Source of the DNA: a virus
Lineage: Duplodnaviria; Caudoviricetes
Strand: one strand, 5' to 3'
DNA length: 64,000 nt
Virus record (IMG/VR): IMGVR_UViG_3300045747_000505
In this document: in pieces, positions 4,678 through 54,502 of the stretch
How the letters are laid out: each line of letters starts with the position of its first letter
Numbering within the stretch: position 1 is the stretch's first letter
Position numbers and translations under genes: made by a program
Notes under the pieces: model-generated
What the model saw: the letters and a program-made list of their open reading frames with translations, nothing else
Database searches by the model: none
What the model was told of the DNA's origin: nothing

Positions 4678-5069
4678 TGCTTCGTCTCTCACAGCTCATC
4701 GCCTCCCTTCAGGCGTGTCAACAGATGTACGGCGACGTCGAGGTCATGAAGAATGATTTCGAGGACGGCATCATCCCTATTGCGCCACACGTCGAGTATC
4801 GGCGCGTGGCGCTCGATCTCGCCAACGGCAAGACCTCTGAGCTGCTCAGCGCCGCGGACTACTTCATGGCGCACGACGCGGTGCAGAATCACAACCACAC
4901 TGTGACCGAGATTCAAGAGATCGTGGACAACTGGGAGATGCTGGGCGCCGAGCTGCGCGGCGTCTTCACCGATCCCAAGGAGCTCATGGACATGCACATG
5001 GTCGCCCACTGGCGGAACATCGCCATCGTGCAGGCCTGGGACAACTCGCCAGTCGTGCTGGTTCTGTAA
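4677..5069 (+). CDS. Hypothetical protein
   Basis: Coupled ORF; its stop TAA lies in the GTAAC arm. Confidence 0.7.
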   Translation: MLRLSQLIASLQACQQMYGDVEVMKNDFEDGIIPIAPHVEYRRVALDLANGKTSELLSAADYFMAHDAVQNHNHTVTEIQEIVDNWEMLGAELRGVFTDPKELMDMHMVAHWRNIAIVQAWDNSPVVLVL

Positions 5070-5114
5070 CAGCCGGCAATCGTTACACCTGAACCAACGA
5101 TTGTGTGGTACAAT
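5065..5114 (+). promoter_or_regulatory. TGTAAC..GTTACA element plus -10 (short class)
   Basis: GTTACA 5082-5087, TACAAT 5109-5114, 21-nt spacer. Confidence 0.7.
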
Positions 5115-5120
5115 GCAGAC

Positions 5121-5363
5121 ATGCAATCGGAGCTTCAAGTGACCAAAGACCAAAAGGCCAAGCTGTTCTTCTACGCGATCACGATCGTCGCCTTCCCTGG
5201 CTTTCTGATCCTGCTCGCCTTGATGCTGATCAACCCGTTCTGGTTTCGCCAGGACATGATTCAGTGGCTCATTCGCCTCTCGAAGCGCTTCGCCACCTAT
5301 CGGCGCGAGACGGTCGAGGACATTCGTCGTGGTTACGTTCTCTTCGTGGACTGCTCAAAATGA
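5121..5363 (+). CDS. Small membrane protein
   Basis: Hydrophobic stretch LFFYAITIVAFPGFLILLALMLINPFWF; ATG 6 nt after -10. Confidence 0.7.
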   Translation: MQSELQVTKDQKAKLFFYAITIVAFPGFLILLALMLINPFWFRQDMIQWLIRLSKRFATYRRETVEDIRRGYVLFVDCSK

Positions 5364-5569
5364 AACTTTTCCTCGCCACCTTTCGCCTCGAGCACAATCC
5401 CTACATGGGCCGGACCCGTGTTGACAAGGAGGTGTCCATGCGGCTGATCTGGGCCGCCAGCGACGACGAGGCGGAGAAGAAGCTGTACGCTGCACTGGAG
5501 AAGCCGGCGCGCCCTGGCGACGACTCTACGTACGTCAAGGACCTGGACATCAACGAGGCCATTTCGTAA
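5360..5569 (+). CDS. Hypothetical protein
   Basis: MKLFLATFRLEHNPY..., ATGA overlap. Confidence 0.65.
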   Translation: MKLFLATFRLEHNPYMGRTRVDKEVSMRLIWAASDDEAEKKLYAALEKPARPGDDSTYVKDLDINEAIS

Positions 5570-5640
5570 CATGTCCATGGTAGGTAACATGGACATGTTA
5601 CACTTTCGCCTGAGCCAGGATGCTCAGGCTGAAGTATAAT
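5566..5640 (+). promoter_or_regulatory. 14-bp GTAAC..GTTAC hairpin plus -10 (long class)
   Basis: GTAACATGTCCATG-8nt-CATGGACATGTTAC; TATAAT 5635-5640, 32-nt spacer containing stem GCCTGAGC/GCTCAGGC. Confidence 0.8.
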
Positions 5641-5667
5641 GACTCACCGTCAACCAAGGACCCAATC

Positions 5668-6249
5668 GTGATCGCACAAGACATCACCACCAAGAAGTTC
5701 ATCGCCGTCTTCCCGCTCAGCCAGATCTGCGCTCAGTGGAAGGGCTACGTCATCGACGCCGCCGGCACCATCTACTCGAACCGTCAGACGAAGGACCCCA
5801 AGACCGTCAAGAAGATGCTCGGGACTCGGGTCTACGGCTCCAGTCAGCGCAACTTCACGCTGAACAAGGTCAACCACCGTGGTGACCGTGTGCTGGCTCA
5901 AGCCAAGCGCGCCTCGACCTGGGTCAGGGAAACCGACCCGAAGCAGCTGGAGGTGCCGGAACTGCCGGCCGAAGCCAAGCCGCAGTGGCCGTTCCCGACC
6001 GACAAGGCGCAGAGCGATGCCTACCTCGGCAAGAAGCAGGACGTTCTGCAAGCCGTCAAGGACCGTGGCCACGTCATCGCCTCCATCACCGAGGGCAAGC
6101 TGACCTTCGGTGCCGAGCCGAAGATTCACTCGACTCTGAAGTCCGTCGACGAAGAGGTCGCTCGTCTGGCCAAGCTGATGCCCGGCACCGTCTTCGTCAA
6201 GCTGCTCATCACCGGTGCCGTCGTCGCCGGTGGCCTGACCCACCTCTGA
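5668..6249 (+). CDS. Hypothetical protein
   Basis: GTG start after AAGGA. Confidence 0.7.
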   Translation: MIAQDITTKKFIAVFPLSQICAQWKGYVIDAAGTIYSNRQTKDPKTVKKMLGTRVYGSSQRNFTLNKVNHRGDRVLAQAKRASTWVRETDPKQLEVPELPAEAKPQWPFPTDKAQSDAYLGKKQDVLQAVKDRGHVIASITEGKLTFGAEPKIHSTLKSVDEEVARLAKLMPGTVFVKLLITGAVVAGGLTHL

Positions 6250-6266
6250 ATCCAGGAGTCGTCAAC

Positions 6267-6842
6267 ATGTACCAATCCGCATCAATCGCTGGCAAGCTGT
6301 CCGGCTCCGATCGTCTCGGCCTGGGTGCTGCCCGCTCCGCCGAAGCCGCGCCAAGCTGGGCTCGTCCTGGTCAGGCCGCTCGCTGGGCAGCGGCCGCTCC
6401 CAAACCGTTGCCCGAGTGGGTCAGCGGTCCCGAGTTGACCGAGGCCGACAAGCCGCTGATGGATCCCGCCGAGCAGATCCTCGACATCGCGCTGGCCGGC
6501 TCCGCCATGCTCGCTGACGTCTGGCGCGTCAAGACGATCGACGCCATCAACGACACCATCGACAAGTTCCTGCGGCCGAAGAGCAACGAGTTCTTCAAGT
6601 TTCACGACCACGGCACTCGTGAAGGTCTCATCATGACGAAGATGAAGGCCGTCCCACCAGGCGGTCGTGTCATCATCGCCCCGCACCGCGCGTTCTCCAT
6701 GGGCGGCCCCAATGACGTGGACCGTGGGTTGGTCGTCATGGGCGGCCTCGGTCAACACGCCGAGGTGAACTCGTTTCGTCGAGAGATGATCGAGGAAACG
6801 TTCTACGATCTGGCCAGCGCGCCGTATTCGACCGGCTACTGA
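6267..6842 (+). CDS. Hypothetical protein
   Basis: MYQSASIAGK..., AGGAG RBS. Confidence 0.7.
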   Translation: MYQSASIAGKLSGSDRLGLGAARSAEAAPSWARPGQAARWAAAAPKPLPEWVSGPELTEADKPLMDPAEQILDIALAGSAMLADVWRVKTIDAINDTIDKFLRPKSNEFFKFHDHGTREGLIMTKMKAVPPGGRVIIAPHRAFSMGGPNDVDRGLVVMGGLGQHAEVNSFRREMIEETFYDLASAPYSTGY

Positions 6843-6845
6843 GTC

Positions 6846-6907
6846 GTTACACCTTCCACGGGTTGTTACACTTTACCGGTGTACAACCCGTCAGGGTATG
6901 GTAGAAT
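6846..6907 (+). promoter_or_regulatory. Tandem GTTACAC boxes plus -10
   Basis: GTTACAC at 6846 and 6865; TAGAAT 6902-6907, 31-nt spacer. Confidence 0.7.
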
Positions 6908-6932
6908 GGTCTCACCAACCGAGAACCTCACC

Positions 6933-7205
6933 ATGCGCCTCATCCTCTCCTTCAACGTCTCCGACGACTGCACGTTCTCCTACACGGAGACGGTGCCGAT
7001 CGAAGCCGAATCACCCGAAGCGGCAATCGTCGAGTTCGAAGAGCAGTGCACCGCCGCCAAGGCTCGGTGTGAGAAGTCCTGGTTCGACGGTGAGTTCACC
7101 GCCTTTGGTCGCACGTTCGACACGACCAACTTCTACTCTGGCGGTCTGATTCAGCTGCCATCCATTCAAACCTTCGACGAGTGGTTCGAAGCCAACAAGG
7201 AATAA
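6933..7205 (+). CDS. Hypothetical protein
   Basis: MRLILSFNVSDD... downstream of promoter. Confidence 0.7.
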   Translation: MRLILSFNVSDDCTFSYTETVPIEAESPEAAIVEFEEQCTAAKARCEKSWFDGEFTAFGRTFDTTNFYSGGLIQLPSIQTFDEWFEANKE

Positions 7206-9498: not shown

Positions 9499-9839
9499 GC
9501 TCAGCGGGACACTACATTGGACGTGACGACACGTCGGCAGAACCAACCAGGAAGCCGCTAGGGATTGAGGGAGCACGGGATGGTGTTCTCAGTGTCGACC
9601 GCCTGAGCAAGCTCCCTGCCGTCGAACACCTGGCCGTCCTCGTCGAGAAGCCGTTCTCAGGACCCGACGGCTACGGTGGAACCGAGTACGGTCACCTGCT
9701 CGAGTACCTCGCCTTCGAAAGTGAAAAAGCCCTCGAGGGCTGGATCCTCGCCGCCACCAAGCGGAACGATGTGTTTCGCATTCTTCGCACGAAGAAGCTA
9801 AGTTACACTGTTCACGCGTCAATCTCACTCGAAGCGTGA
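9495..9839 (+). CDS. Hypothetical protein between topoisomerase subunits
   Basis: Coupled ORF; its 3' end contains a GTTACA box. Confidence 0.65.
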   Translation: MSSAGHYIGRDDTSAEPTRKPLGIEGARDGVLSVDRLSKLPAVEHLAVLVEKPFSGPDGYGGTEYGHLLEYLAFESEKALEGWILAATKRNDVFRILRTKKLSYTVHASISLEA

Positions 9840-35404: not shown

Positions 35405-35602
35405 ATGAAAGTATTCAGTGACGCCGCCGTTTCGAAGGACTACGTTGATGCAGCAGCCACTGCTGCAGTTGCAACATCGTCGACCGTTATTGACGCTGTC
35501 GACGCCAAGCAAACGCTGCAAATCAAGCAGCTGCGCAATATCGTCGCCTTGTCCTTTGTTCTGAACCTCGTCATCACGCTGACGCTCAAGTTCCTCGTGT
35601 AA
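35405..35602 (+). CDS. Small protein with C-terminal transmembrane helix
   Basis: IVALSFVLNLVITLTLKFLV; AAGGA RBS. Confidence 0.65.
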   Translation: MKVFSDAAVSKDYVDAAATAAVATSSTVIDAVDAKQTLQIKQLRNIVALSFVLNLVITLTLKFLV

Positions 35603-35660
35603 CGACGCTTCGGTGTCGTTACACTTTAGTCCTACAGATTCCTGTAGGCTGATGTATAAT
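35597..35660 (+). promoter_or_regulatory. GTGTAACGAC/GTCGTTACAC hairpin plus -10
   Basis: 10-bp stem; TATAAT 35655-35660, 31-nt spacer with inner stem CCTACAG/CTGTAGG. Confidence 0.8.
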
Positions 35661-35666
35661 GGCACC

Positions 35667-36131
35667 ATGGACACCGATACCTACACCCTCCTGGAGTCAG
35701 AAGTCAACGACTGGCTGGCATACGCTTCCGTCACCCCGTACGATGCGCAATCGCGCGCCAAGTACAAGGCGATTCGTGAGCGCATCTGCATGCTGTTCCG
35801 CGACTATCGTGCCGCTCACGTCGCCAACTGCAAGGTCACCGAGCTGCCCGAGCGCATCGTTCAGGTCAGCGAACGGACTCTCCGGCACATCGCCACCTGT
35901 CGCGCCAAGGAAGAGCAGGACAAAGAGGACCTGCGCAAGGAGCTTCTTGACAAGCTCACCCGCGCCAGTCGCGAGGCGCTCGTCAACCTCATCTGGGATC
36001 AGAAGGAAGACTACATTCGCGGCTTCGACTCGGTCACCGAAGGTGTCAGCGCCTGGGACTGCCTCATCGACTCCATTCGCTACGGCTACATCACTCGCGA
36101 CAACCTCGCCCATCACGGCATCACCATCTGA
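35667..36131 (+). CDS. Hypothetical early protein
   Basis: ATG 6 nt after -10. Confidence 0.7.
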   Translation: MDTDTYTLLESEVNDWLAYASVTPYDAQSRAKYKAIRERICMLFRDYRAAHVANCKVTELPERIVQVSERTLRHIATCRAKEEQDKEDLRKELLDKLTRASREALVNLIWDQKEDYIRGFDSVTEGVSAWDCLIDSIRYGYITRDNLAHHGITI

Positions 36132-36138
36132 GAACATC

Positions 36139-36536: not shown

Positions 36537-36819
36537 CTTCAGCCCAGACAACCACAACGCTGCCACCGCCATGCGAGCGGTGATCGAGCGGCAAGAAGCC
36601 GAAGCCAGGCTCGAAGTGGCAGAGCGCAACATTCGCGTCGCGCTCGTCAACATCGACGCTCGACTGCCGACGCTCTACAAGGCGCAGGGCACCTTCAACG
36701 CCATGCGTGAACTGGCCCGAACACCCGATCAGAAGGTCGCCTCTGACGCGCTGGTCTCTTTCGCTGCCGCCTACGTCGACATGCTGGAAGGGCTTCGCAA
36801 GGAACTGACGAAGGTGTAA
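36526..36819 (+). CDS. Hypothetical protein
   Basis: ORF; stop in GTGTAAC. Confidence 0.65.
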   Translation: MNPDFSPDNHNAATAMRAVIERQEAEARLEVAERNIRVALVNIDARLPTLYKAQGTFNAMRELARTPDQKVASDALVSFAAAYVDMLEGLRKELTKV

Positions 36820-36877
36820 CGATGGACGAGGGCGTTACACTTTGGCTTGAGCAGATTCCCCAGGATCAGGGTATAAT
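36814..36877 (+). promoter_or_regulatory. GTGTAAC..GTTACAC plus -10
   Basis: TATAAT 36872-36877, 32-nt spacer. Confidence 0.75.
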
Positions 36878-36908
36878 GACTCATCGTCACGCTGATACTG
36901 ATTCTGAT

Positions 36909-37160
36909 ATGCACTGCCTCAACACCGCCCGCCGCGTCAGCTTCGCTGAATTTGTCGCGACCACCACCCAGTTCATCTCGATGGTGCCTTCACTGCCGAT
37001 CGACGATGCCGAGCGCATCTACGCCGTCATCAATCGGGACTACCTCAACACCACCTGCACCGACAGCGATGAACCTCGCGCCGCTAGTCTGCTTCGCTGC
37101 GCTGCCGATGCCGTGTGCATCGCCGGTGGTCACGCTCCCCTCTTCAACTCCTTCGAGTGA
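36909..37160 (+). CDS. Hypothetical protein
   Basis: ORF downstream of promoter; start uncertain. Confidence 0.55.
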   Translation: MHCLNTARRVSFAEFVATTTQFISMVPSLPIDDAERIYAVINRDYLNTTCTDSDEPRAASLLRCAADAVCIAGGHAPLFNSFE

Positions 37161-37163
37161 ATC

Positions 37164-37403
37164 GTGGTTTCAAACCTTTCACTTCTTTCACCTGAAGCGT
37201 TTCGCGATCTCGTCGGCATGATCCTCGAGGCAGAGCGCGAGGCACGCGGAGGCCTGAAGACTTCGACGATGCATCAGCTCGAAAAGTGGCTGATCACAGG
37301 CGCCGCCCTGCACAACCCTTGGACTGACGAGCAGCTCCGTGAACTGCGCTTCACCGGTCTCATGACCCTCGTCTACCGTCGCGTCCGTGACCAGGGCGTG
37401 TAA
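37164..37403 (+). CDS. Hypothetical protein
   Basis: ORF; stop in GTGTAAC. Confidence 0.55.
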   Translation: MVSNLSLLSPEAFRDLVGMILEAEREARGGLKTSTMHQLEKWLITGAALHNPWTDEQLRELRFTGLMTLVYRRVRDQGV

Positions 37404-37447
37404 CGGTTACAACTTTTCCTACCACGGATTCAGGTTCGTGGTATAAT
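37398..37447 (+). promoter_or_regulatory. GTGTAAC-G-GTTACA plus -10
   Basis: TATAAT 37442-37447, 30-nt spacer. Confidence 0.75.
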
Positions 37448-37472
37448 GGTCGCATACCAACGAAGGATCCCA

Positions 37473-38597
37473 ATGTTCCCGACCATCAACCATCTCAACG
37501 ACCTGCTCCCGTACATTCAGGACAACCCGCAAATCCGGGTGAAGGTCGAGCCGAACGGCATGACCGTCGTGTGCTACATGCTGCAAGACGAGGACACCTT
37601 CTCGGGTGCCAACGCCGACTTCGCTGCCGAGTGCCGTGGCATCACCTTTCACCAGAATGGCAAGATCGCTGCTCGTACCCTCCACAAGTTCTTCAACGTT
37701 GGTCAGGAAGACAGCACCCGTCCGGAGAACATCGACTGGACCAAGGTCGTTCGCATCATGGACAAGCGTGATGGTTCGATGATCACTCCGGTCCTGGTCG
37801 GCGGTCTCGTGAAGTGCAAGACCAAGAAGTCGTTCGACACCAAGGAAGCGGCGCTGGCCGATTCGCTGGTGCGCGCTGATCCGGCGAAGCTGCAGTGGGT
37901 GAACGATCTGCTGCTTTGCGGCTACACCCCGACCTTCGAGGTGACCTCGCCGTCGCTGCCGATCGTGCTGCTCTACGACAAGGACGAGCTGACCCTGCTT
38001 CACATTCGCTCGAACCGCACCGGTCGCTATCTGGACGAGGACGAGGTCAAGGCGTTCAAGCCGCCGTTCCCAATGGTCGAGAACGTGATGCAACGGTTCG
38101 TCGATGAGGCCACTGGCCTGGTCGACTGGGCGCTGCTGAAGGAAGCTGCTGAGGTCGCCACTGGTGTCGAGGGCTGGGTCATCCAGTTCGAGAACGGCGA
38201 CATGGTCAAGCTGAAGACTCAGTGGTACTGCGACCTGCATCACTCGGTGACCTTCACCCGGTGGCGTGACATCGCCCGCTCGGTGGTTGCGGACCAGTCC
38301 GACGACTTGAAGGGCGCGTTCGCGATGACCGGTCGTTCGATCGAGCCGATTCTGACCGTCGAGCGTGGCATCAAGGGCAAGATCGAAACCGCCAAGATGG
38401 CGGTGAAGGAGATCGTGTTGCTGGGCGTCGTGACCGAGAAGGACGTCAAGGCCATGGCCATGGAGTACAAGTCGCACCCGATGTTCGGTCAGATCATGCG
38501 CGCCTTCCGTGGTCAAGAGATCAACTGGATGGAGTGGTACGAGAAGTTCCACCTCGACACTGATTGGTCGCTGCTGGTTGTTGGAGATGAAGCATGA
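37473..38597 (+). CDS. rnlA: RNA ligase 1 (T4 Rnl1-like)
   Basis: ECRGITF, KFFN, motif I KRDGS, TFEVTSP, EGWVI, VKLKTQWY. Confidence 0.9.
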   Translation: MFPTINHLNDLLPYIQDNPQIRVKVEPNGMTVVCYMLQDEDTFSGANADFAAECRGITFHQNGKIAARTLHKFFNVGQEDSTRPENIDWTKVVRIMDKRDGSMITPVLVGGLVKCKTKKSFDTKEAALADSLVRADPAKLQWVNDLLLCGYTPTFEVTSPSLPIVLLYDKDELTLLHIRSNRTGRYLDEDEVKAFKPPFPMVENVMQRFVDEATGLVDWALLKEAAEVATGVEGWVIQFENGDMVKLKTQWYCDLHHSVTFTRWRDIARSVVADQSDDLKGAFAMTGRSIEPILTVERGIKGKIETAKMAVKEIVLLGVVTEKDVKAMAMEYKSHPMFGQIMRAFRGQEINWMEWYEKFHLDTDWSLLVVGDEA

Positions 38598-43487: not shown

Positions 43488-43964
43488 ATGGCTATTATCT
43501 CAACACGAATGCTTGGCGAGGGAACTGACGAACAGTTTCTCAAGGAGCTTCGAGACGAAATTCAACTCCGCGCCAATCGAGTTCTCGGCGCCAACGCCAT
43601 TCAAATCACCACAGATAAGGTCGATTTGATGTCGTCGCTGTCCGGCCTGATCGAAGGTTACGAGAACGCGACCATGACGATGCTGAGCGATATTCGTGGC
43701 TACCAGCTCACCAACGCCATCATGCAGGTCGAGCTGTCTCAAGCGGCAGCGACGATTCGCGCTTTGACCGCCGTTCCATACGATGCCGCCCTTGATTCGG
43801 CGGTGACCGAGTTCATGGACGTGCTGACGTCAACGGTTAATGGTGCCAGCATGTCGCCGGACAATACTGTCGTCTTCGATGGGCGTCAAACGATTGGCAA
43901 GGGTGATTTGAAACCCGTGCTGCGTGAAGCCATCACGCGCTGGATCGATCAGCGCCTTTCGTAA
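43488..43964 (+). CDS. Hypothetical protein
   Basis: ORF; stop in GTAAC. Confidence 0.7.
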   Translation: MAIISTRMLGEGTDEQFLKELRDEIQLRANRVLGANAIQITTDKVDLMSSLSGLIEGYENATMTMLSDIRGYQLTNAIMQVELSQAAATIRALTAVPYDAALDSAVTEFMDVLTSTVNGASMSPDNTVVFDGRQTIGKGDLKPVLREAITRWIDQRLS

Positions 43965-44021
43965 CAAGCTCAGGATCGTTACACTTTAACCGGTGGCGAT
44001 CCACCGAATCGAGTGTATAAT
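43961..44021 (+). promoter_or_regulatory. GTAAC..GTTACAC plus -10
   Basis: TATAAT 44016-44021, 32-nt spacer with inner stem CGGTGG/CCACCG. Confidence 0.75.
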
Positions 44022-44045
44022 GGTCCTACCAACCAAGGATACCAA

Positions 44046-44477
44046 ATGACACTCGACGATCTTCAAGCCCTGCTCCTGGACCAAGATGCTTTTCGTCGTG
44101 CACTCCGTCGTGATGACGTGGTCGCCCTGCTCAAAGGCCAGTTCCGCGAAGGTCGCCTGCCGAACATTCATCAGGTGACCTTCCCCAACGGGAGCCAGCT
44201 GCGCATCAAGTTCTTCGACACGGTCAAGCGCCTCTTCAACGCCAAGAATGTCGAGCTCATCGGCAAGGAATCCTTCCTGTCCTACATGGAGATCAGCGTG
44301 CTGCCCGTCGGCAGCAAGGGCTACTTCTACACCACGGACGTGAGCCAAATCGTCTGGGGCATGTCACAGACCAAGGCTCGTGTCAAGCACGAAGCCGCCG
44401 TGGCTGCCATTCGTGACTTCGCCACCTCGCTCGACATCACGCCGACCTGGACCACGACCTACACCGAGAACTATTGA
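44046..44477 (+). CDS. Hypothetical early protein
   Basis: AAGGA RBS. Confidence 0.7.
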   Translation: MTLDDLQALLLDQDAFRRALRRDDVVALLKGQFREGRLPNIHQVTFPNGSQLRIKFFDTVKRLFNAKNVELIGKESFLSYMEISVLPVGSKGYFYTTDVSQIVWGMSQTKARVKHEAAVAAIRDFATSLDITPTWTTTYTENY

Positions 44478-44479
44478 TC

Positions 44480-44698: not shown

Positions 44699-44700
44699 CC

Positions 44701-47700: not shown

Positions 47701-48861
47701 AGCGTTCGTCGTGATGCGAGCATCGAGACCGTTCAACTGAACGACCTGTGATGGCGTCATCACACCAGCCGCTGTCGTCGAGGCTTGGTCCACGGTGAGT
47801 GTGACCGTTGTCAGATCACCAGAGGTCTGAGCGTGCAGTGGAGCGACAGCATTGATCGTGGTCAGCGTACCGTTGCCGGTGCCACCACCGCCACCCGCTG
47901 CTTCACAGACGATGTTGAGCAGAATGGTGCGATCGTTCTTGATCGTGCCGACGCGATAGACGATGTCCGCAATTGGGCGAGTCGTTGTGAGCTGTCCAAG
48001 AGCGTCTGACCACAGCGCTTCGCCAGCATGCCCAGCCCAGTCCCACTGGTCGTAGGTGATTTCGCCAGACTGCGTGAGCGTGCCAACCTCAGTCTCGTTC
48101 AGACCGTATTCGACGAGACCAACTGGTGCCTTGCGAGCTGCAACGGCGTCAACTGAGCTGGACAGCGAGACTGTGTCGACGTCGCTGAAGTAGACCAAGC
48201 TCATCGGCGGGAGATTCTCGCCGGCACGAACTGGAACGAAGTTGTTGATGGCGTTGCTGAGAACGCCAGACGTGCCGACGGTGATGGCGGCACGAACTGG
48301 TGTGTCAGTCGTCAGCAGCGTGCCAGCTGCCGTGCGGACTGGGCGAAGACCTGCGTCGTAGAGGACGAAGCCTGGCTGGCATGGGACGTTGAGACCGACG
48401 CCTGAGCCGGCAATGTAGCCAACAAGCTGCGACGTGCTGCCACCAACTGCCTTGCCGATGAACACGCGTGGCGCCGGAAGCCACTTGGTGTTGGCTGAAT
48501 TGCGCACCTTCATTACCTGGTCGTTGAGGTCAAACCAGTGCTGACCAGCTACCAGCGACGGCTCAACAAGGCTTGTGACTGGCTCGAGCTGCGTCGTGCC
48601 AGTTTGAACCTCGCCAGACAGCAGGTCGATGCCGACGTAGAAGTAGTTGGTTGGACCCAGCACGACCGGACCGAAGGCAGCCGCCTTCTGAACGTCAAAC
48701 TTGAGTAGATAGTCGGTCGGACCGTGCGCGATGGTCGCGAAGAACGGGGTCGGGGCTACCTTCAGGTCGACGTAATCTGGAATGGCAGCCTGAACGAGGA
48801 AGTCTGGCGCCGGTCCGTTTAGTTGGAATGAGATAAGACCTTGGCGGAAAATTAGCTTCAT
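44701..48861 (-). CDS. Large fibre/adhesin-like virion protein (about 1386 aa)
   Basis: Start MKLIFRQG after minus-strand TAAATA 48887-48892; three GG.M.G...L..AP....HA.TK.YVD repeats; five LP.Q.GN.GK.L.TDGT..SW repeats. Confidence 0.8.
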   Translation of the reverse strand: MKLIFRQGLISFQLNGPAPDFLVQAAIPDYVDLKVAPTPFFATIAHGPTDYLLKFDVQKAAAFGPVVLGPTNYFYVGIDLLSGEVQTGTTQLEPVTSLVEPSLVAGQHWFDLNDQVMKVRNSANTKWLPAPRVFIGKAVGGSTSQLVGYIAGSGVGLNVPCQPGFVLYDAGLRPVRTAAGTLLTTDTPVRAAITVGTSGVLSNAINNFVPVRAGENLPPMSLVYFSDVDTVSLSSSVDAVAARKAPVGLVEYGLNETEVGTLTQSGEITYDQWDWAGHAGEALWSDALGQLTTTRPIADIVYRVGTIKNDRTILLNIVCEAAGGGGGTGNGTLTTINAVAPLHAQTSGDLTTVTLTVDQASTTAAGVMTPSQVVQLNGLDARITTNAGNITTLQSTKANANHSHLITDVTGLTTELSNKLPLAGGTMTGFITLNAAPTASLHAVTKGYVDTAISSIASANTSFQSQLDGKLNITGGSMTGPLSLSGAPVNALDAASKSYVDTTTATITAGVGTLLDGKLSLTGGTMSGPITLSGAPVVPLHAATKQYVDSAMSASSLTAGTGITITSGVVAIGQPVATTSNPVFNNINASGSVVIQGNLTVTGTTTTIASASLDVGNASISLLNLVTGVPTQNASFAVNRGTSPEVSMRWNEALDQWEFTNDGLIFHKFITSLADLGSTTYTDAQADLRVAAGIAGSSINALADVDTVAPAPTDGQVLTWVAASSLWKPRTPASAVSSVNGFTGAVVLSSTNITEGTNQYFTTSRARTAISATAPISYDSTTGIISAAGLGTVSSVSGAGGTTGLTLAGGPITTTGTLTLGGTLNIASGGTGATTASAALTGLLPSQAGNANKVLTTDGTNSSWSTVSASNVLPAITGNSGKYLGTDGTTISWTAFSANAILPAQAGHATQFLTSDGTNSSWAAISASTLLPSQVGNAGKALITNGTAAVWSTITPDSVLPAQSGNSGKVLTTDGINSSWGTVSASTATNLLGGAASQIPFQSAGSATAFSANLAWVTSTSTLLLGGTASNTTITTNVADTLTLNSSALMVKTGTTERLRVLANGAWSVGTGGTATGTSGQVLMSTGATTAPAWTSMPGGLSTAGSTGTIQIVGAGGVLAAGNGVYTAPTTTFTGTAAGAAVAIRSTTAVASWLDLGRAAAEAVIGVTGVAAQHFTGTLAGDLVLRSSTAAVRLGYSSAGTTAPTLSLDTSGNAILGQAGYVSFVAGSTEKMRVTSTGGVSFGATGTATGTTGQVLTSAGAASPVWKDSGEFMVIALSDETTALSTGTAKVTFRAPYAMTLYQIPRAGLSSAGTGTTSVDVKVNGTSILGVAKLTIDAAEKTSTTAAAATTLITTTIADDAEFTLDIAAAGAGAKGLKVTLYYQRT

Positions 48862-48922
48862 TGAGAGCTCCACGAATTGGTTTGAGTATTTATCACGTTG
48901 GCAGCTTCTGGTTGATGCCCCG

Positions 48923-48930
48923 TATAAATA
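48923..48930 (+). promoter_or_regulatory. T4-type late promoter TATAAATA (divergent from minus-strand TAAATA 48887-48892)
   Basis: Exact T4 late consensus. TAAATA also precedes late genes at 1079(-), 13343, 19990, 22073, 24158, 25682, 32199, 39565(-), 39592, 41013, 56791, 62120, 63900(-). Confidence 0.8.
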
Positions 48931-48954
48931 GCTGACTGGAATACGGAGCACTGA

Positions 48955-50436
48955 ATGCAACTCACAGAACTATTCGAAGCCAAGTACAGCGGTGCAAACG
49001 TTGGCTCGGCTATGTCAAAGATCGTCTCGTACCTTGAGCGAGCAATGAGCTTCAAGCTGCTCAAGCTCGGAGTCGAAACCTTTCACAACAGCGCAGAGAA
49101 CGCTCGTGGCATTCGCTACGTCGAGCTCGGCACGCTCAACTGCATTCGCTTCAACTGGGTTGGTTCGAAGTCATCAGAGATCGTCTCGATCGACCTGTGG
49201 AATGGTTCATCGCGCGACCCGAACTTTCACATCAAGCTGAACGGTACCTCGCTCGTCAAGGCGCTGCCCGCTCTCGTTCAAGTGCTGAAGTCGCCGAAGA
49301 TCGGCAAGGTCTCCGTGACCGAAGCGCTCGTGCTTGAGGTCAAGAAGGGTGAGTTCAGCGAGACGTCTGCCGTCAACGACATGATTCAGAAGCTTGAAGC
49401 TGGTCGCAGCTTCAACCGCTCAGAGTTCATCAACGCCTATCACGTGGACAATGCTCACGCATTCGACGAGTTCGTTGAGGCGAACAAGGATGATCTCGTC
49501 TTCACTGGCAAGCGCATCAGCATTCCAAAGGGCACCAAGCTCGGCGCCAAGTCTGATGGTGGTGGCGGCGGACTGACGGTCACGAAGGGTGGCAGCGGTG
49601 AAGAGTACGAGGTCGAGGTTCCAGAGTCTGAGGACCGTGTCACCTTCAGCGACAGCATCAAGGATCTGGAAGGTCTGACGACCGCAGTCATTCGTGGCAA
49701 CGCCAACGCGCTGTTCGTCGCTGGCCGTGGTGGTACCGGCAAGACGCAGACGGTTGAGGACGTGCTCGCTGCCGCTGGTCTTGAGGATGGCAAGGGCTAC
49801 GAGAAGATCACTGGCTCGGCCTCGCCAATCGGCATCTACTACGCGCTCTACAAGAATCGCACCGGCATCATTCTGTTCGACGACTGCGACGGCGCGCTCG
49901 ATCAGCAAGACGGCCGCAACGTCATCAAGGCGGCGACCGACACGAAGAAGATTCGCAAGATCGCTTGGGGCAAGAAGAATCCAGGCATGTACGACCCAGA
50001 CTCACGCGCGCCACCGCCGTCTGATCCAGATGAGGACGAGGGTGTTGACGATGAAGAGGGTGGCGATGATGACGGTGGTTCTTCTGGCAAGCAAGACGAC
50101 AAGATTCCAAACCGCTTCAACTTCGAAGGTCGCGTCATCTTCATCTCGAACATGCCGCTGAACAAGCTCGACCCAGACGGCGCCCTTCGCACTCGCGCCT
50201 TCGTCATCAGCGTTGACCCAACGCCAGAGGAAATGTTCGAGCGCATGGGTGAGATTCTGCACAGCATTCGCCTTGAGTCTGGCTCGCTGTCGCCTAAGGA
50301 GCGTCAAGAGGTTCTGACGGTTGTTCGTGGCTCCAAGCGCGCCAAGGACGCCTCACTGCGTACGCTCGTTCGCGCCCTCAACCTCGCAAGCAGCGGAGCT
50401 CCAAACTGGAAGCTTCTGGTTCAGCGCTACGCGTAA
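48955..50436 (+). CDS. Late AAA+ ATPase with N-terminal extension
   Basis: GRGGTGKT, IILFDDCD, RVIFISN, ALRTR; N-terminus MQLTELFEAK; acidic insert. Confidence 0.85.
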   Translation: MQLTELFEAKYSGANVGSAMSKIVSYLERAMSFKLLKLGVETFHNSAENARGIRYVELGTLNCIRFNWVGSKSSEIVSIDLWNGSSRDPNFHIKLNGTSLVKALPALVQVLKSPKIGKVSVTEALVLEVKKGEFSETSAVNDMIQKLEAGRSFNRSEFINAYHVDNAHAFDEFVEANKDDLVFTGKRISIPKGTKLGAKSDGGGGGLTVTKGGSGEEYEVEVPESEDRVTFSDSIKDLEGLTTAVIRGNANALFVAGRGGTGKTQTVEDVLAAAGLEDGKGYEKITGSASPIGIYYALYKNRTGIILFDDCDGALDQQDGRNVIKAATDTKKIRKIAWGKKNPGMYDPDSRAPPPSDPDEDEGVDDEEGGDDDGGSSGKQDDKIPNRFNFEGRVIFISNMPLNKLDPDGALRTRAFVISVDPTPEEMFERMGEILHSIRLESGSLSPKERQEVLTVVRGSKRAKDASLRTLVRALNLASSGAPNWKLLVQRYA

Positions 50437-50500
50437 GTGTAACAGGGCTGCGTGAGCAGCTCGGTTCGTTACACCTGGGCTGAGGATTTCGGTGTATAAT
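50437..50500 (+). promoter_or_regulatory. GTGTAAC..GTTACAC plus -10 (short class)
   Basis: TATAAT 50495-50500, 21-nt spacer. Confidence 0.75.
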
Positions 50501-50525
50501 GGTTCCAACAACTCGGAACCTCATC

Positions 50526-50726
50526 ATGCTCACCCCTGAACAACTCGCCCGCCTCGAAGAGCTCCTCGCCGAGCATCGCTACGCCGGCTCGAAGGACTGG
50601 CGTGAAGGTTCGCTCGTCGAGCGCGTCGACTGGCTCATCGCCATGTATGAAGCCAAGAAGGCGGTGGTCGAAGACCTCGAGGCGACCATCACCCACCTCG
50701 CCCATCAAGCGTTCATCATCACCTAA
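50526..50726 (+). CDS. Hypothetical early protein
   Basis: First ORF after promoter. Confidence 0.65.
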   Translation: MLTPEQLARLEELLAEHRYAGSKDWREGSLVERVDWLIAMYEAKKAVVEDLEATITHLAHQAFIIT

Positions 50727-50736
50727 GGAGCACATC

Positions 50737-50934
50737 ATGTGCCAGTGCTATCAAATCGGAGGTCCCTTCATCGCTGAAGACCCTGACTGCGAAGTGCACG
50801 GTCGTGAAGCTCAGCGCGCTGCCGAGGACCGTGATGTCCTCATCGAGCGGCTCACGCTCGTCTCACGGCAAGGCAGCGAGACCGAAATCTGGCAGGGCCT
50901 CATCGCCGCTATCGAATACCTCCGCACGCTATGA
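50737..50934 (+). CDS. Hypothetical protein
   Basis: AAGGAG RBS; MCQCYQIGGPFIAEDPDC. Confidence 0.65.
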   Translation: MCQCYQIGGPFIAEDPDCEVHGREAQRAAEDRDVLIERLTLVSRQGSETEIWQGLIAAIEYLRTL

Positions 50935-51188
50935 CCACTGAACAAACGATGTCGCGTGACGAGTTCCTCGCCTACGCTGAAGAAGTGCTGTTCGGTGAGG
51001 GTGCCGAGTGCCTCTACGAAGCCGTCGCCGAGCACAACGGTGAGGTCGCCATGTTCGGTGACGCTGGACCAGGTTCTGGTTACCGTCTTCGTCAATCCAT
51101 CGCTGAGTTCAACTCCATCGCTCGTCAGTACGCTCGCCTCACTGGGCGCAGGACGCCACCCGCCCCTACCCTTCGTTCCCCTGCCTGA
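50931..51188 (+). CDS. Hypothetical protein
   Basis: Coupled ORF. Confidence 0.6.
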   Translation: MTTEQTMSRDEFLAYAEEVLFGEGAECLYEAVAEHNGEVAMFGDAGPGSGYRLRQSIAEFNSIARQYARLTGRRTPPAPTLRSPA

Positions 51189-51198
51189 AAGAACCATC

Positions 51199-51633
51199 AT
51201 GCTGAACCTTCCAGTTGGCGCGAAGCGCGTCACCCTTCCCGCCGGTACCTACATCGTCGGCGACCCGTGCTACAACATCCCCGACGACTCGTGGGACGGT
51301 GTGCTCAGCGACTCCGACTCCTTTGAGGCGCAGTGCTTCGGCAAGTTCGCCAAGGGCGACGGCACCGATGGCATCGCCGTGGCGTTCGGCACCAAGTACG
51401 GCGACGGCACCTACGAGTACGGCAAGCTGGAGTTCCCAGTCGACGCTGGCCTCATTGGCATCATCCCCGTCGAGGACGTGCTCGAGCCGAACCTGAACTG
51501 CTCGAACCTCGTGACCTTCACGCAGCCGTTCGAGTGCTTCGAGGAGGGTGGTGTGATTGTCTTTGGCCACATCGAGATCAACACCGGCGACGATCCCGAG
51601 GAGTTCGTGGACTCGAACTGGGACGACGAGTGA
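51199..51633 (+). CDS. Hypothetical acidic protein
   Basis: YIVGDPCY...YGDGTY...FPVDAGLIGIIP. Confidence 0.7.
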   Translation: MLNLPVGAKRVTLPAGTYIVGDPCYNIPDDSWDGVLSDSDSFEAQCFGKFAKGDGTDGIAVAFGTKYGDGTYEYGKLEFPVDAGLIGIIPVEDVLEPNLNCSNLVTFTQPFECFEEGGVIVFGHIEINTGDDPEEFVDSNWDDE

Positions 51634-51893
51634 ACTACAACCGCTACTTCAACGCGTCGCTCAACCGCTCCTACAAGCGGTGGCGGCGAGCGCCTGGTCC
51701 AGTCGGGCAGAGTGTGCCCGGCAACGTCTTCGATCCGGACCCGCGCAAGGACTCCAAGCACAAGTTCGATCGCTGGCTCTTTCGATCTGATGCCGCCAAG
51801 CGCGTCTACTGGCGGACTCATCCCCAATATGGCAAGAATGGCAAGAATGGCAAGTCGCCCTTCAAGTACTGGACAGAGCTGATCAGAGTGTAA
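51630..51893 (+). CDS. Hypothetical basic protein
   Basis: GTGA overlap; 9-bp repeat GGCAAGAAT 51831-51854; stop in GTGTAAC. Confidence 0.6.
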   Translation: MNYNRYFNASLNRSYKRWRRAPGPVGQSVPGNVFDPDPRKDSKHKFDRWLFRSDAAKRVYWRTHPQYGKNGKNGKSPFKYWTELIRV

Positions 51894-51937
51894 CGATCGC
51901 GCTTCGTTACACCTGAACCTTCGAATTGGTGTATAAT
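51888..51937 (+). promoter_or_regulatory. GTGTAACGA/TCGTTACAC hairpin plus -10 (short class)
   Basis: TATAAT 51932-51937, 20-nt spacer. Confidence 0.8.
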
Positions 51938-51961
51938 GGCGTCAGACCACAAGGATACGCC

Positions 51962-52267
51962 ATGACACCCAAGTTCCTCGCCAAGCGCACCATGACCATG
52001 ACCGGTCATCACCGGCAGTGCGTCGGCATTGAAACGGAGGACGGCGTCAAGTTCACCTGGCAGTTCCTTCAAAGCGGTCAGCAGGACATCAAGGTCGGCG
52101 ACAAGGCCTGGGTTGCCAAGCGCCTCAACGTGTCGAAGGAAGGTCTCTGCTACGAGGTCTACGAGGTCACCATCGAGGAAGATGCCTACATGGTCAAGAA
52201 CGGCCACAAGCACTACCCTAAGACCTGGTTCGGCAAGGGTCGTCAAATCGTTGTGAAGGTTAACTAA
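51962..52267 (+). CDS. Hypothetical early protein
   Basis: AAGGA RBS. Confidence 0.7.
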   Translation: MTPKFLAKRTMTMTGHHRQCVGIETEDGVKFTWQFLQSGQQDIKVGDKAWVAKRLNVSKEGLCYEVYEVTIEEDAYMVKNGHKHYPKTWFGKGRQIVVKVN

Positions 52268-52474
52268 ATGAACGCCTATCTCTTGACCTTCGACATCAGC
52301 CTCGCGCTGGCCGCCATCGGCTTCTGGATGTACACCTATGAAGTGATTCAAGGCCGCATCACCCGCACAACTCGCTGGAGCGAGCTGACCGGTGACCAGT
52401 TGTCCTACGCCATTGCTATGGGTGCCGGCGCCGTCGGCATCATCGCCACCGTTCTCATCAAGGCACTGTCATGA
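52268..52474 (+). CDS. Small membrane protein
   Basis: Two hydrophobic helices. Confidence 0.65.
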   Translation: MNAYLLTFDISLALAAIGFWMYTYEVIQGRITRTTRWSELTGDQLSYAIAMGAGAVGIIATVLIKALS

Positions 52475-52773
52475 GCAAGCAAGACATCACCTTCGTCAAG
52501 ATCTCGCCCCGTCACGAGGCAGCGCTCCTCATCACCGAGACGCTGCGCTGCCTCGGCCTCGACGACGCCTACGGCATCTCGTGCGAGCGCGCCGTCGACA
52601 AGAAGGGCAAGAACCACTGGTCCATTCTGTTCTGCAAGGCGCGGACCGTCGACGGCCACGTGCGCGTCTACGCTGACCGCTACATCACCATCGCCATTCA
52701 ACAACGGCGTGGCGTCGAACGCTTCACCTCACCGCGCCAAGCCCAATCGTGGCTCGTGCAGCAGTTCGTATGA
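52471..52773 (+). CDS. Hypothetical protein
   Basis: Coupled ORF. Confidence 0.65.
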   Translation: MSKQDITFVKISPRHEAALLITETLRCLGLDDAYGISCERAVDKKGKNHWSILFCKARTVDGHVRVYADRYITIAIQQRRGVERFTSPRQAQSWLVQQFV

Positions 52774-52946
52774 AGTGGACCGTCTGGCTCTTCTTCTCCT
52801 GCCTGCTCGCCATCATCGGCGTGTTGATGGCGGACCTGCTCGACTGGGACCCATTCAAGGACAACAGCGGACCGGAGTACGTGAAGTACAAGATCGTTTG
52901 GATCGTGCTGCCGAAGCCGAAGCCGTGGTTCGAGTGGATGAAGTAA
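52770..52946 (+). CDS. Small membrane protein
   Basis: N-terminal hydrophobic helix. Confidence 0.6.
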   Translation: MKWTVWLFFSCLLAIIGVLMADLLDWDPFKDNSGPEYVKYKIVWIVLPKPKPWFEWMK

Positions 52947-52998
52947 CCTGCATTTAGGTCAAAACTTCTTTACAATGTTGATAGAATCAAGGTGTGAT

Positions 52999-53184
52999 AT
53001 GAGATACGTCTGCGTGCTACCGTCCACCGCTCTTGATGCCGCGCTGATTGGAATGCCAGCAGCGCTCATCGGCGTTCTGATTGGCGGCATTGTCGATTCA
53101 CCAATCATCGGAGCGTGCTGCGCAGTGCTGGCATGCTTCTCATCCATCGTCATCAACATGATTCTTTATCACCACCACAGATGA
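52999..53184 (+). CDS. Small membrane protein
   Basis: Hydrophobic; after TAGAAT 52982-52987; overlaps the SCO start. Confidence 0.5.
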   Translation: MRYVCVLPSTALDAALIGMPAALIGVLIGGIVDSPIIGACCAVLACFSSIVINMILYHHHR

Positions 53185-53756
53185 AAAAGCTTTCACTCGC
53201 CCTCATGCTCGTCGCCATGCTCACACCAACGCTGGCGCAGCACAACCACACTGCTTCGGCGACGCCAATCCAGGCTGCACAAACGCCTGGCAACTATCGA
53301 TTGCCTGACGTCGTCGTCATTCGGCAGGATGGTGTCAACCTCCCGTTTCCGGCTGTGGTGGACGACGGTCGCCCGGTGATGCTCAACTTCGTCTACACGA
53401 CCTGCACCGCCGTCTGTCCTATCACCAGTCAAGTCTTCGCTGAGGTGCGTGGTCTGCTCGGTGAGCACCGAGACCACGTCAACATGGTCTCGGTCTCAAT
53501 CGACCCCGAGCATGATACACCGCGCGCGCTCAAGACCTACGCCAAAAAGTACGGCGCCTACGGTACGTGGACGCACATCACATCCACCACCGCTGGCTCT
53601 GTCATGATTCAGCGGGCCTTCGAGGTCTGGCGCGGCGACAAGATGAACCACACACCCACCACGTTCATTCGCTGCTCGCCGAGCAAGCCGTGGATTCGTT
53701 TCGATGGTTTTGCGACACCGCAAGACCTCGTCAAGGGCCTCGCTTGCGCCAGCTAA
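53181..53756 (+). CDS. SCO1/SenC-family copper chaperone, exported
   Basis: Signal peptide; LNFVYTTCTAVCP (CxxxC); SIDPEHDTP; conserved His in KMNH. Confidence 0.9.
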   Translation: MKKLSLALMLVAMLTPTLAQHNHTASATPIQAAQTPGNYRLPDVVVIRQDGVNLPFPAVVDDGRPVMLNFVYTTCTAVCPITSQVFAEVRGLLGEHRDHVNMVSVSIDPEHDTPRALKTYAKKYGAYGTWTHITSTTAGSVMIQRAFEVWRGDKMNHTPTTFIRCSPSKPWIRFDGFATPQDLVKGLACAS

Positions 53757-53787
53757 GACAAGCACACTTCAACTACCGGACCATCCA

Positions 53788-53991
53788 ATGAAACGCTCCC
53801 TCTTCGTCGTTCTCGCTCTCATCTCCTTCGCTGCCGTCGCCGCCCCGCTGGCACCAGCCGACGCAGCCTCGGCCTCCAAGGCCACCGCCGACGCTCAGCG
53901 CAAGCTTCACAGCTGCCAATCGAAGGCGCGTGCCGAAGGCCTCTCCGGCCTCGAAGGGCGCGTGTTCGTGGCTGATTGCCTCAAGGCCTGA
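53788..53991 (+). CDS. PsiF-like small exported protein
   Basis: Signal peptide; QRKLHSCQSKARAEGLSGLEGRVFVADCLK resembles the PsiF repeat. Confidence 0.65.
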   Translation: MKRSLFVVLALISFAAVAAPLAPADAASASKATADAQRKLHSCQSKARAEGLSGLEGRVFVADCLKA

Positions 53992-53992
53992 C

Positions 53993-54199
53993 ATGCACAT
54001 CGGCGACTTCGACCCCCTAAGGGAGGGAATTCTCCCGCCGTCGGTTGGGCTCGCGCTCGCCGAGTACACCACCGCTGTGGCCAACTACGCCATCTCAGTG
54101 GAGCTGCAAGACAAATCGCTTCAGGCCGAGGATGAGGCGAGAGCTATCGTCGCCCTACGGGCGCTTGCTGCCGAGATGGTCAAGCTGACGCAGCGTTAG
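53993..54199 (+). CDS. Hypothetical protein
   Basis: ORF. Confidence 0.55.
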   Translation: MHIGDFDPLREGILPPSVGLALAEYTTAVANYAISVELQDKSLQAEDEARAIVALRALAAEMVKLTQR

Positions 54200-54247
54200 C
54201 CTGATTACCTTCGGTGATAAGTATACGCAATCGACACCGGAGGTTTC

Positions 54248-54445
54248 ATGATAGTTCGAGCCACCTTCAATCAACTCCCAGTCGGCATATTGCCAGGGCA
54301 GAACATTCGATATCAACTTCAGCACGGGCTTTGGTATGTCGATTTGGCAGAGAATATACCATGGCGCAACGTCACGGCGTATGAGATAGATACTCAACGG
54401 CAAGTCCTCTGTGGCTACAAAACCGCCTCCATGCAAGAGGTGTAA
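54248..54445 (+). CDS. Hypothetical protein
   Basis: GGAGG RBS; TAAGTA upstream; stop in GTGTAAC. Confidence 0.6.
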   Translation: MIVRATFNQLPVGILPGQNIRYQLQHGLWYVDLAENIPWRNVTAYEIDTQRQVLCGYKTASMQEV

Positions 54446-54502
54446 CGAGCGGAAAGTTCGTTACACTTTAGCCAGCCTGATTCCCGTGCAGTATGTTATA
54501 GT
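54440..54502 (+). promoter_or_regulatory. GTGTAACGAGC/GTTCGTTACAC hairpin plus -10
   Basis: TGtTATAGT with TATAGT at 54497-54502, 31-nt spacer. Confidence 0.7.

Follow-up and report, generated by a model that had tools for sequence, protein, structure and literature searches.

Introduction

Integron attC sites carry the cores RYYYAAC and GTTRRRY and span roughly 57-141 bp. T4-type phages possess PeSL and PmSL cassettes (units of an early or middle promoter and a stem-loop) that are repeated before small non-structural genes, are absent from the structural block and have a conserved leader (PMC2839356, PMC4122927). Crossovers at PeSL cassettes were mapped between Shine-Dalgarno (SD)-ATG repeats (PMC2839356). 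Regulators of the OmpR subfamily recognise a GTTACA-type half-site. For OmpR this is KWWGTTACAT, and the repeat is written as GTTACATTTTGTTACAT (PMC5438342) or GTTACAnnnnGTTACA (PMC7315122). For RisA, the OmpR ortholog of Bordetella (Burkholderiales), 391 of 430 chromatin immunoprecipitation sequencing (ChIP-seq) peaks contain GTTACA, a single peak holding as many as six copies (PMC11019879), and BfmR binds TTACA repeats in both direct and inverted orientation (PMC11212878). Here we describe inverted repeats of the form GTAAC...GTTAC that lie at gene junctions in IMG/VR virus record IMGVR_UViG_3300045747_000505 (Caudoviricetes) and share features with each of these systems. The stretch analysed, all 64,000 nucleotides of it, is referred to as the window.

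The window is part of a 273.5-kb contig of a phage from pond or wetland that has not been cultured. Among the genes of the window are those for T4-type topoisomerase II subunits, the RNA ligase RnlA, PhoH, Tpt1/KptA and a thymidylate-synthase-family enzyme, together with a long structural gene block. The closest cultured phage is the Ralstonia jumbo phage RsoM2USA (39% amino-acid identity on RnlA), with Burkholderia phages next; a search of cultured phages found no nucleotide-level relatives of the window. The comparisons below draw on related uncultured contigs (L001-L012, G001-G005 and L087-L097; 53-84% identity on RnlA). Relatives at the AAA ATPase locus were found by an alignment query, a query with the single AAA ATPase protein having given nothing. 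The RsoM2USA paper is silent on promoters and detected no RNA polymerase genes in the phage (PMC8504454), and we found no description in the literature of a box promoter for this phage group.

We find that the right arm of the repeat is a promoter element locked to the -10 hexamer, not to the gene end. The left arm is a further copy of that element in a second slot, and not primarily half of a hairpin. On balance it seems probable that the elements are phage early/middle promoters of an OmpR-activated-like kind, whose paired boxes would be read by an OmpR-type regulator that recruits host RNA polymerase.

Anatomy of the modules

The pattern GTAAC-N(1-30)-GTTAC has 13 matches in the window, all on the + strand, against a mean of 0.14 and a maximum of 1 in 100 shuffles. 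Two of the matches (5566 and 5584) are nested, so that 12 junctions result: nine that had been listed in an earlier reading of the same letters (the original prediction) plus 1094, 50439 and 60417. That reading had described a stop-hairpin-promoter module at early gene blocks, and its anatomy is borne out: we find a compact module that runs from stop codon through inverted repeat, promoter and leader to a start codon and is placed at the head of early/middle-type genes. The wide range of loop lengths that it reported corresponds to gaps between the arms of 1 nt (37400) to 24 nt (50439, 60417), its maximal stem of 14 bp is the one at 5566-5601, and the promoter that it placed after the right arm is seen as a TATAAT-like hexamer at a fixed distance behind every right arm. 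Two further modules have a direct distal box and one has no distal box. The 15 modules are listed here, with the distance from the start of the proximal box to the -10 in brackets.

Module 1, 1094..1185, + strand: inverted box 1094-1098; proximal box 1111-1116 (GTTACG); -10 TAGAAT 1148-1153; ATG 1183.
Module 2 (short class), 5066..5141, + strand: inverted box 5066-5070, whose TAA 5067-5069 stops gene 4677-5069; proximal box 5082-5087; -10 TACAAT 5109-5114 (27 nt); GTG 5139.
Module 3, 5566..5670, + strand: inverted boxes 5566-5570 and 5584-5588, TAA 5567-5569 stopping gene 5105-5569; proximal box 5597-5602; -10 TATAAT 5635-5640 (38 nt); GTG 5668.
Module 4, 6846..6935, + strand: direct distal box 6846-6851; proximal box 6865-6870; -35-like TGTACA 6880-6885; -10 TAGAAT 6902-6907 (37 nt); ATG 6933; topoisomerase II large subunit gene downstream.
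Module 5, 9802..9854, + strand: single box 9802-9807; -10 TATAAT 9840-9845 (38 nt); ATG 9852, six nt past the -10; topoisomerase II A-type subunit gene downstream.
Module 6 (outlier), 14808..14901, + strand: inverted box 14808-14812, TAA 14809-14811 stopping the Tpt1/KptA gene; proximal box 14816-14821; -10 TATGAT 14862-14867 (46 nt); the module forms the left edge of a 3.4-kb insertion.
Module 7, 35599..35669, + strand: inverted box 35599-35603, TAA 35600-35602 stopping gene 35405-35602; proximal box 35618-35623; -10 TATAAT 35655-35660 (37 nt); ATG 35667, a leaderless layout.
Module 8, 36816..36911, + strand: inverted box 36816-36820, TAA 36817-36819 stopping gene 36526-36819; proximal box 36834-36839; -10 TATAAT 36872-36877 (38 nt); probable ATG 36909.
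Module 9, 37400..37475, + strand: inverted box 37400-37404, TAA 37401-37403 stopping gene 37164-37403; 1-nt gap; proximal box 37406-37411; -10 TATAAT 37442-37447 (36 nt); ATG 37473 of RnlA follows.
Module 10, 43961..44048, + strand: inverted box 43961-43965, TAA 43962-43964 stopping gene 43488-43964; proximal box 43978-43983; -10 TATAAT 44016-44021 (38 nt); ATG 44046.
Module 11 (short class), 50439..50528, + strand: upstream gene 48955-50436; inverted box 50439-50443; proximal box 50468-50473; -10 TATAAT 50495-50500 (27 nt); ATG 50526.
Module 12 (short class), 51890..51964, + strand: inverted box 51890-51894, TAA 51891-51893 stopping gene 51333-51893; proximal box 51906-51911; -10 TATAAT 51932-51937 (26 nt); ATG 51962.
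Module 13, 54442..54532, + strand: inverted box 54442-54446, TAA 54443-54445 stopping gene 54248-54445; proximal box 54460-54465; -10 TATAGT 54497-54502 (37 nt); ATG 54530 of a clamp-loader-like AAA ATPase gene.
Module 14, 60417..60517, + strand: inverted box 60417-60421; proximal box 60446-60451; -10 TATAAT 60483-60488 (37 nt); GTG 60515.
Module 15, 62252..62341, + strand: direct distal box 62252-62257; proximal box 62269-62274; -10 TATAAT 62307-62312 (38 nt); ATG 62339.

A repeat finder run on the window did not recover the modules as long repeats, and Rfam gave no match within it.

The right arm is locked to the -10 hexamer

From the start of the proximal box to the -10 hexamer there are 36-38 nt in 11 of the 15 modules, 26-27 nt in three and 46 nt in one. 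Counted from the motif, GTTACA precedes a -10-like hexamer by 36-38 nt (n=10), 26-27 nt (n=3) or 46 nt (n=1), distal direct boxes do so by 55-56 nt (n=2), and almost all other distances between 8 and 89 nt have no matches. The eleventh long-class module, at 1111, has GTTACG as its box. The long-class consensus is GTTACACTTT, each position of which is shared by 8-11 of the 11 modules, and the short-class box reads GTTACACCTG. The box is 10 bp long and lies at approximately -49 to -40 relative to the start site; a few boxes are shifted by one helical turn nearer to or farther from the -10, which is of TATAAT type and often extended. No TTGACA-like -35 hexamer is found 16-18 nt upstream of the -10 in 14 of the 15 modules. 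Either the -10 is followed by a conserved leader some 20 nt long (ACCAACCAAGGA...ATG), or the start codon comes six nt past the hexamer. The latter arrangement (ATG 9852; open reading frame (ORF) 35667-36131) would give a leaderless message. In L011, the ortholog of a gene of this leaderless type has its ATG seven nt past its -10.

The box and its spacing are conserved. In the 349-kb relative G001 a single strand carries all eight boxes found at 37-38 nt, with a control count of 0, and the box is kept at 37-38 nt both in relatives of 47-58% GC and in RsoM2USA. There it is often found with a TGTACA hexamer at the -35 position, which has mostly been lost in the window phage; the more distant relatives L005 and L008 have TGTACA-N17-TATAAT and no box. 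The -35 hexamer of the wider phage group is TGTACA, not TTGACA (L005, L008 and G001; for example G001 302272, 251244 and 180082, minus strand). A strict scan of IMG/VR for the module pattern returned single, chance-level matches only. In all four DNA runs that we inspected, a second module nearly identical to 50439-50502 was seen on another contig at equal depth. Apart from a one-base insertion following 50482 and the loss of two bases at 50486, the two agree until shortly after the -10, where the copy continues into a different leader and gene. This indicates a near-identical paralogous module elsewhere in the genome.

The genes behind the modules are those for topoisomerase II and RnlA and small ORFs, whereas the structural genes have T4-type late motifs instead. 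ATAAATA, a match to the T4 late-promoter core, occurs on the + strand at 11407, 22072, 24157, 25681, 32198, 39591 and 48924 and on the - strand at 22104, 39571, 48893 and 63906. These sites precede the starts of several structural and minus-strand genes by some 25-40 nt and suggest late transcription of the gp55 type. Since the structural genes carry the late motif instead, the box promoters would belong to the pre-replicative class.

The left arm as a second box

Whether direct or inverted, the distal boxes are found 54-58 nt ahead of the -10. Their slot is independent of the position of the proximal box, which is why the apparent loop of the repeat is so variable. Orthologous junctions differ in what they retain. 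After the tail genes (module 35599) the window has an inverted pair, L011 and G004 a direct one. Before rnlA (module 37400) the window again has an inverted pair, whereas L009 has no left arm; the ortholog of module 36816 in L009 has kept both arms. Of eight phages compared upstream of the AAA ATPase gene, three have an inverted pair, 17-18 nt apart, and the other five have two or three direct boxes at spacings of about 9-10 or 19-22 nt. In L091 three boxes lie at 38, 58 and 80 nt before the -10. For direct and inverted boxes alike, box-to-box distances fall into groups near 7, 18, 30 and 42 nt. A shift of the inverted distances by +5 nt, which was to join them to the helical phase of the direct boxes, was dropped, as the periodicity statistic fell. 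Because the second box can be direct, tripled or absent at orthologous sites, the hairpin is not the conserved feature. The stop-hairpin-promoter module of the original prediction has thus kept its stop codon, inverted repeat and promoter; the hairpin has lost its place as the core, on account of these sites and of the four of 12 repeats that fold like shuffles.

The left-arm TAA had been noted as the stop codon of the upstream gene in nine cases (5067, 5567, 14809, 35600, 36817, 37401, 43962, 51891 and 54443), and at each of them it closes a frame that has been open for 68-192 codons. This amounts to nine of 11 applicable cases, against at most one third expected by frame (binomial P = 0.0014). 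At 50439 the upstream gene ends at TAA 50434 and the TAA of the arm is next in frame (TAA GTG TAA), giving a tandem stop. At 60417 a mere 11 open codons precede the arm's TAA, and at 1094 there is no upstream + strand gene. The sense strand carries a TAA because the inverted box reads GTGTAAC there, and the upstream gene ends in that TAA because the space from stop to start at module junctions, 64-98 nt, consists of the module alone. Before rnlA the stop is TAG in L009 and TAA in the window, a few substitutions apart, a comparison which shows that the arm arose around a pre-existing stop. The overlap is best read as compaction together with the easy evolution of a box from a stop-codon context, not as a sign of recombination.

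Likeness to OmpR-type promoters

The phage box GTTACACTTT agrees with the OmpR repeat at nine of 10 positions. Its GTTACA half-site, shared with RisA, is followed by a T-rich 3' flank as in GTTACATTTT/KWWGTTACAT (PMC5438342), and the same core and tail characterise the sites of ompF and ompC (F1-F3, C1-C3), RisA, RstA and BfmR. The slots also agree. By script measurement on fetched upstream DNA, the conserved 'b' half-sites of E. coli ompF start 78, 58 and 38 nt before the -10 and those of ompC 78, 57 and 37 nt, the ompF half-site F3b having the sequence GTAGCACTTT; the phage boxes start at 36-38 and 54-58 nt, and in L091 also at 80 nt. A promoter-proximal half-site at 37-38 nt with further copies at about 57-58 and 78-80 nt is therefore common to both. 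So are a weak or absent -35 and the use of several copies, direct or inverted. The phage modules differ from OmpR promoters in their number (15 in 64 kb), in a distal copy that is usually inverted, 16-19 nt away and not part of a contiguous 10-bp tandem, in the extra spacing classes of 26-27 and 46 nt, and in the overlap of the distal copy with the upstream stop codon.

Since the box matches the half-site of the OmpR subfamily and both slots match those of ompF and ompC, binding by an OmpR-type protein is the likeliest mechanism; that a protein binds, which one it is and that it activates are what we infer from these matches. A winged-helix response regulator of the subfamily would bind the boxes and recruit host RNA polymerase. 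The box takes the place of the -35, starting 36-38 nt before the -10, with a second copy about 55 nt before it. The distal box is usually set head-to-head with the proximal one, which creates both the GTAAC...GTTAC repeat and the sense-strand TAA. In about five modules the repeat has become extended to a stable RNA hairpin, possibly ending or stabilising the upstream message.

The putative regulator is probably encoded by the host, since related phages encode none. Trans_reg_C, the OmpR-type DNA-binding domain, was not found in five relatives, including the complete RsoM2USA, whose genome itself carries box promoters (the positive control was found in 10 of 14 genomes). A Pfam scan of about 60 window proteins likewise gave no DNA-binding domain. 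A host OmpR-type regulator is thus the leading candidate for the reader of the boxes. LacI-type palindromes, TyrR boxes, the P2 Ogr site TGT-N12-ACA, CRP sites, UP elements and a -35 hexamer were considered as identities for the box and rejected on spacing or sequence.

RNA folding of the repeats

The minimum folding energy of each repeat was compared with that of 200 shuffles. Five of the 12 repeats are strong (-12 to -24 kcal/mol), three marginal and four no better than shuffles. Module 3 has the 14-bp stem (-23.6 kcal/mol), module 7 a 12-bp stem with a UUCG loop (-19.5 kcal/mol) and module 13 a 12-bp stem (-17.7 kcal/mol). No shuffle was as good as the hairpins of module 1 (-15.2 kcal/mol) and module 12 (-11.9 kcal/mol); module 8 is marginal (-10.3 kcal/mol, 4/200 shuffles). 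Neither module 10 nor module 2 has a significant hairpin, the latter at -3.8 kcal/mol being matched by 84/200 shuffles. The arms of module 14 are not paired in the minimum-energy fold, and those of module 9 (37400), one of the four shuffle-like repeats, are unable to form a hairpin.

The repeats lack the GC-rich stem and U tract of an intrinsic terminator. None of the 12 is followed by a U tail, the right arm running on into ACTTT or ACCTG, and a terminator scan of the window called no repeat; its 14 and 19 sites, against 16.6 expected, are no excess over shuffles. In G001, separate GC-rich hairpins with T runs lie directly upstream of three of 10 box promoters. A second hairpin, between box and -10 in the -35/spacer region, was noticed at 5603-5637, 35624-35657 and 37412-37444 and, more weakly, at 9808-9842. 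It is present in three or four of 12 modules, with variable sequence and energies of -12.6 to -17.9 kcal/mol (0-1/200 shuffles), and would be transcribed only by upstream read-through; the other modules have none.

Gene turnover around the modules

The proposal of the original prediction that genes are shuffled at the elements found no support in synteny. At the divergence available between the window and the collinear contig G004, a module is present at 4 of 22 presence/absence boundaries, compared with 8 of 45 other junctions (P 0.61), and the identity shared between modules does not exceed 16 bases. Modules are denser in window-specific DNA as a trend only (10/44 vs 2/23, P 0.14). Relative to G004 the window has seven clean insertions; some are edged by modules or boxes (35613-37403 and 14812-18233 are such indels) and others have no module at either edge.

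The insertion at 14812-18233 (3.4 kb) lies between the Tpt1/KptA and thymidylate-synthase-family genes. Its flanks carry GTTACAA(A)TCG as box-containing direct repeats about 11 nt long: GTTACAAATCG (14816) and GTTACAATCGG (18234). This region (14812-18288) encodes a 781-aa protein without a Pfam match and a glycosyltransferase with a borderline match to a TET-associated glycosyltransferase (26.8 bits, cutoff 27.5), and it may be a DNA-modification cassette. A larger block, 44486-54017 (about 9.5-10 kb), is also absent from G004 and ends near module 54442. Within it are two short-class modules, a 1419-aa minus-strand gene without a Pfam match, a 493-aa paralog (phrog_1250) of the AAA ATPase at 54530 and an SCO1/SenC-like gene (53115-53756).

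In L009 an extra 107-aa ORF (1279-1615; compare window 37473) lies exactly at the start codon behind an orthologous module. It is bounded by SD-ATG repeats of the AAGGAnCCCAAATG type (AAGGATCCCAAATG, AAGGACACCAAATG), and this gene gain or loss used microhomology at the translation start. When contigs of four pond/wetland DNA runs were compared with 35-55 kb of the window, none of the modules there had a strain-level indel or a back-joint, although rare forms would be missed. The few joints in those runs lie inside genes at low depth with unrelated letters between them, and are not trusted.

Discussion

Several observations weigh against an OmpR-type reader. The contiguous 10-bp tandem of OmpR half-sites, to which a dimer binds, is missing: conserved boxes are mostly 16-22 nt apart and often inverted, and 9-10 nt spacing is confined to L090, L092 and L094. 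The intervening 'a' half-sites are not recognisable, and conservation does not extend to the positions beside the box. Immediately before it there is mostly a C in place of the T of E. coli. A match of 6-10 bp to one of many known regulator motifs can be due to chance. The -10 and start-site assignments of ompF and ompC on which the slots depend are ones that we take to be correct; they fit known leader lengths, and a literature search for a paper stating the two -10 hexamers found none. That the host is betaproteobacterial is a presumption from the relatives. Three stems run 4-9 bp past the box, two of them via G-U pairs, and the stem before the ATPase gene has a compensatory change in G004. 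These features make some selection for RNA pairing likely in a subset of modules, which the box model does not require.

The same architecture could instead be read by a phage-encoded factor or a phage-modified RNA polymerase, an analogue of T4 MotA/AsiA, with the likeness to OmpR sites a coincidence or mimicry. Topoisomerase II, RnlA and the late ATAAATA motifs mark the phage as T4-like, the lineage in which the box is conserved spans 47-58% GC, and for a lytic phage to hang dozens of promoters on a host signalling protein seems risky. T4 middle promoters, which depend on a MotA box and on sigma appropriation by AsiA, also lack a -35, have a good -10 and a lineage-specific upstream box, and drive topoisomerase and RNA ligase genes. 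Their box, however, is centred at -30 and is unrelated in sequence, whereas that of the phage is centred near -45 (or -35, -55), and the phage boxes are paired and helically phased. MotA_activ was not found in the five relatives (a search without a positive control), which lack the OmpR-type domain as well, and no DNA-binding domain was found among the window proteins. A phage factor would also leave the joint match of sequence, slots and multi-box arrays to OmpR sites unexplained, and we consider it unlikely. Less likely again is that the inverted repeat acts mainly as an RNA stem-loop (a terminator, insulator or 3'-end protector) within a terminator-promoter cassette of the PeSL type that doubles as a crossover point. 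The stop-to-start layout fits the PeSL definition (PMC2839356, PMC4122927), as the original prediction had rightly seen, and the modules share with these cassettes their repetition before small non-structural genes, absence from the structural block and conserved leader. The L009 indel between SD-ATG repeats resembles a PeSL crossover site, some other indels are edged by modules or boxes, and the strong folds, the extended stems and the T-run hairpins of G001 would all suit such a role. On the other side, PeSL cassettes have both a -35 and a -10, whereas the modules have an upstream factor box in place of the -35 and a 3' stem arm that is itself the box. The repeats that fold like shuffles, the missing U tails, the direct or single boxes at orthologous sites, the limited identity between modules and the lack of a significant link to breakpoints also speak against it, as do the DNA-run contigs with no joints at modules. 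A PeSL-like role in gene turnover is possible but unproven.

The original prediction had drawn the likeness to attC sites and had named a tyrosine recombinase and an HUH nuclease as enzymes to look for. We reject a recombination function of the attC kind, or of any other site-specific kind served by such an enzyme, as having next to no likelihood. The likeness is genuine as far as it goes. GTGTAAC/GTTACAC differs from RYYYAAC/GTTRRRY at one position per arm, as had been stated, both kinds of element are imperfect inverted repeats built on AAC...GTT cores, the upstream gene may end inside the left core as it does at many attC sites, and the 3.4-kb insertion has its box-containing direct repeats. 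Yet attC sites have two inverted core pairs with extrahelical bases, and the phage elements are far shorter, with one pair of 5-8 bp arms 1-24 nt apart and no inner repeats (L boxes). Integron cassettes are promoterless and depend on a common Pc; each unit here has its own -10, leader and start codon. The right arm keeps its distance from the -10 rather than from the gene end, and the element persists where the left arm is absent. PF00589 (Phage_integrase) was not found in five related phage records, including one 97% complete and the complete RsoM2USA, while the control was positive in 14 of 14 genomes. The earlier reader was right about the anatomy of the module and wrong about its mechanism. 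Activator sites, which that reader had set against its own proposal, are now what the evidence favours.

Promoters read by an OmpR-type regulator would have wider consequences. We suggest, more tentatively, that giant T4-like phages of Betaproteobacteria may have wired dozens of early/middle promoters to a host envelope-stress regulator of the OmpR/RisA type by copying porin-promoter architecture (the F3b, F2b and F1b slots without a -35), the distal half-site being flipped so that one 8-bp sequence would serve as box, stop codon and hairpin arm. This we regard as possible, with doubt prevailing. If a host OmpR-type regulator does read the box, phage expression would depend on the envelope and osmotic signalling state of the host; in the searchable literature we found no account of lytic phage expression tied to host OmpR-type signalling. 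Transcription start and timing are almost unknown in uncultured giant phages, and a promoter grammar in which one box occupies three slots, followed by an extended -10 and a conserved leader, offers a means of annotating early/middle genes across this phage group. Regulatory and coding signals overlap strongly at these junctions, and a short AAC...GTT inverted repeat at the end of a gene is not necessarily attC-like.

Other genes of the window

The window also encodes two DnaJ-domain paralogs (11910-12770 and 13370-14257), a circularly permuted YpsA/SLOG protein (12767-13345), a YqeY-like protein (1981-2427) and a Thg1-like tRNA-His guanylyltransferase (61252-62082), a set of RNA and chaperone genes that is unusual in a phage. 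Genes 44474-44698 (+) and 44701-48960 (-) converge, leaving 2 nt and no terminator between their ends, and a lone GGTAACC (window 44695-44703) holds the TAA of the + strand gene 44474-44698.

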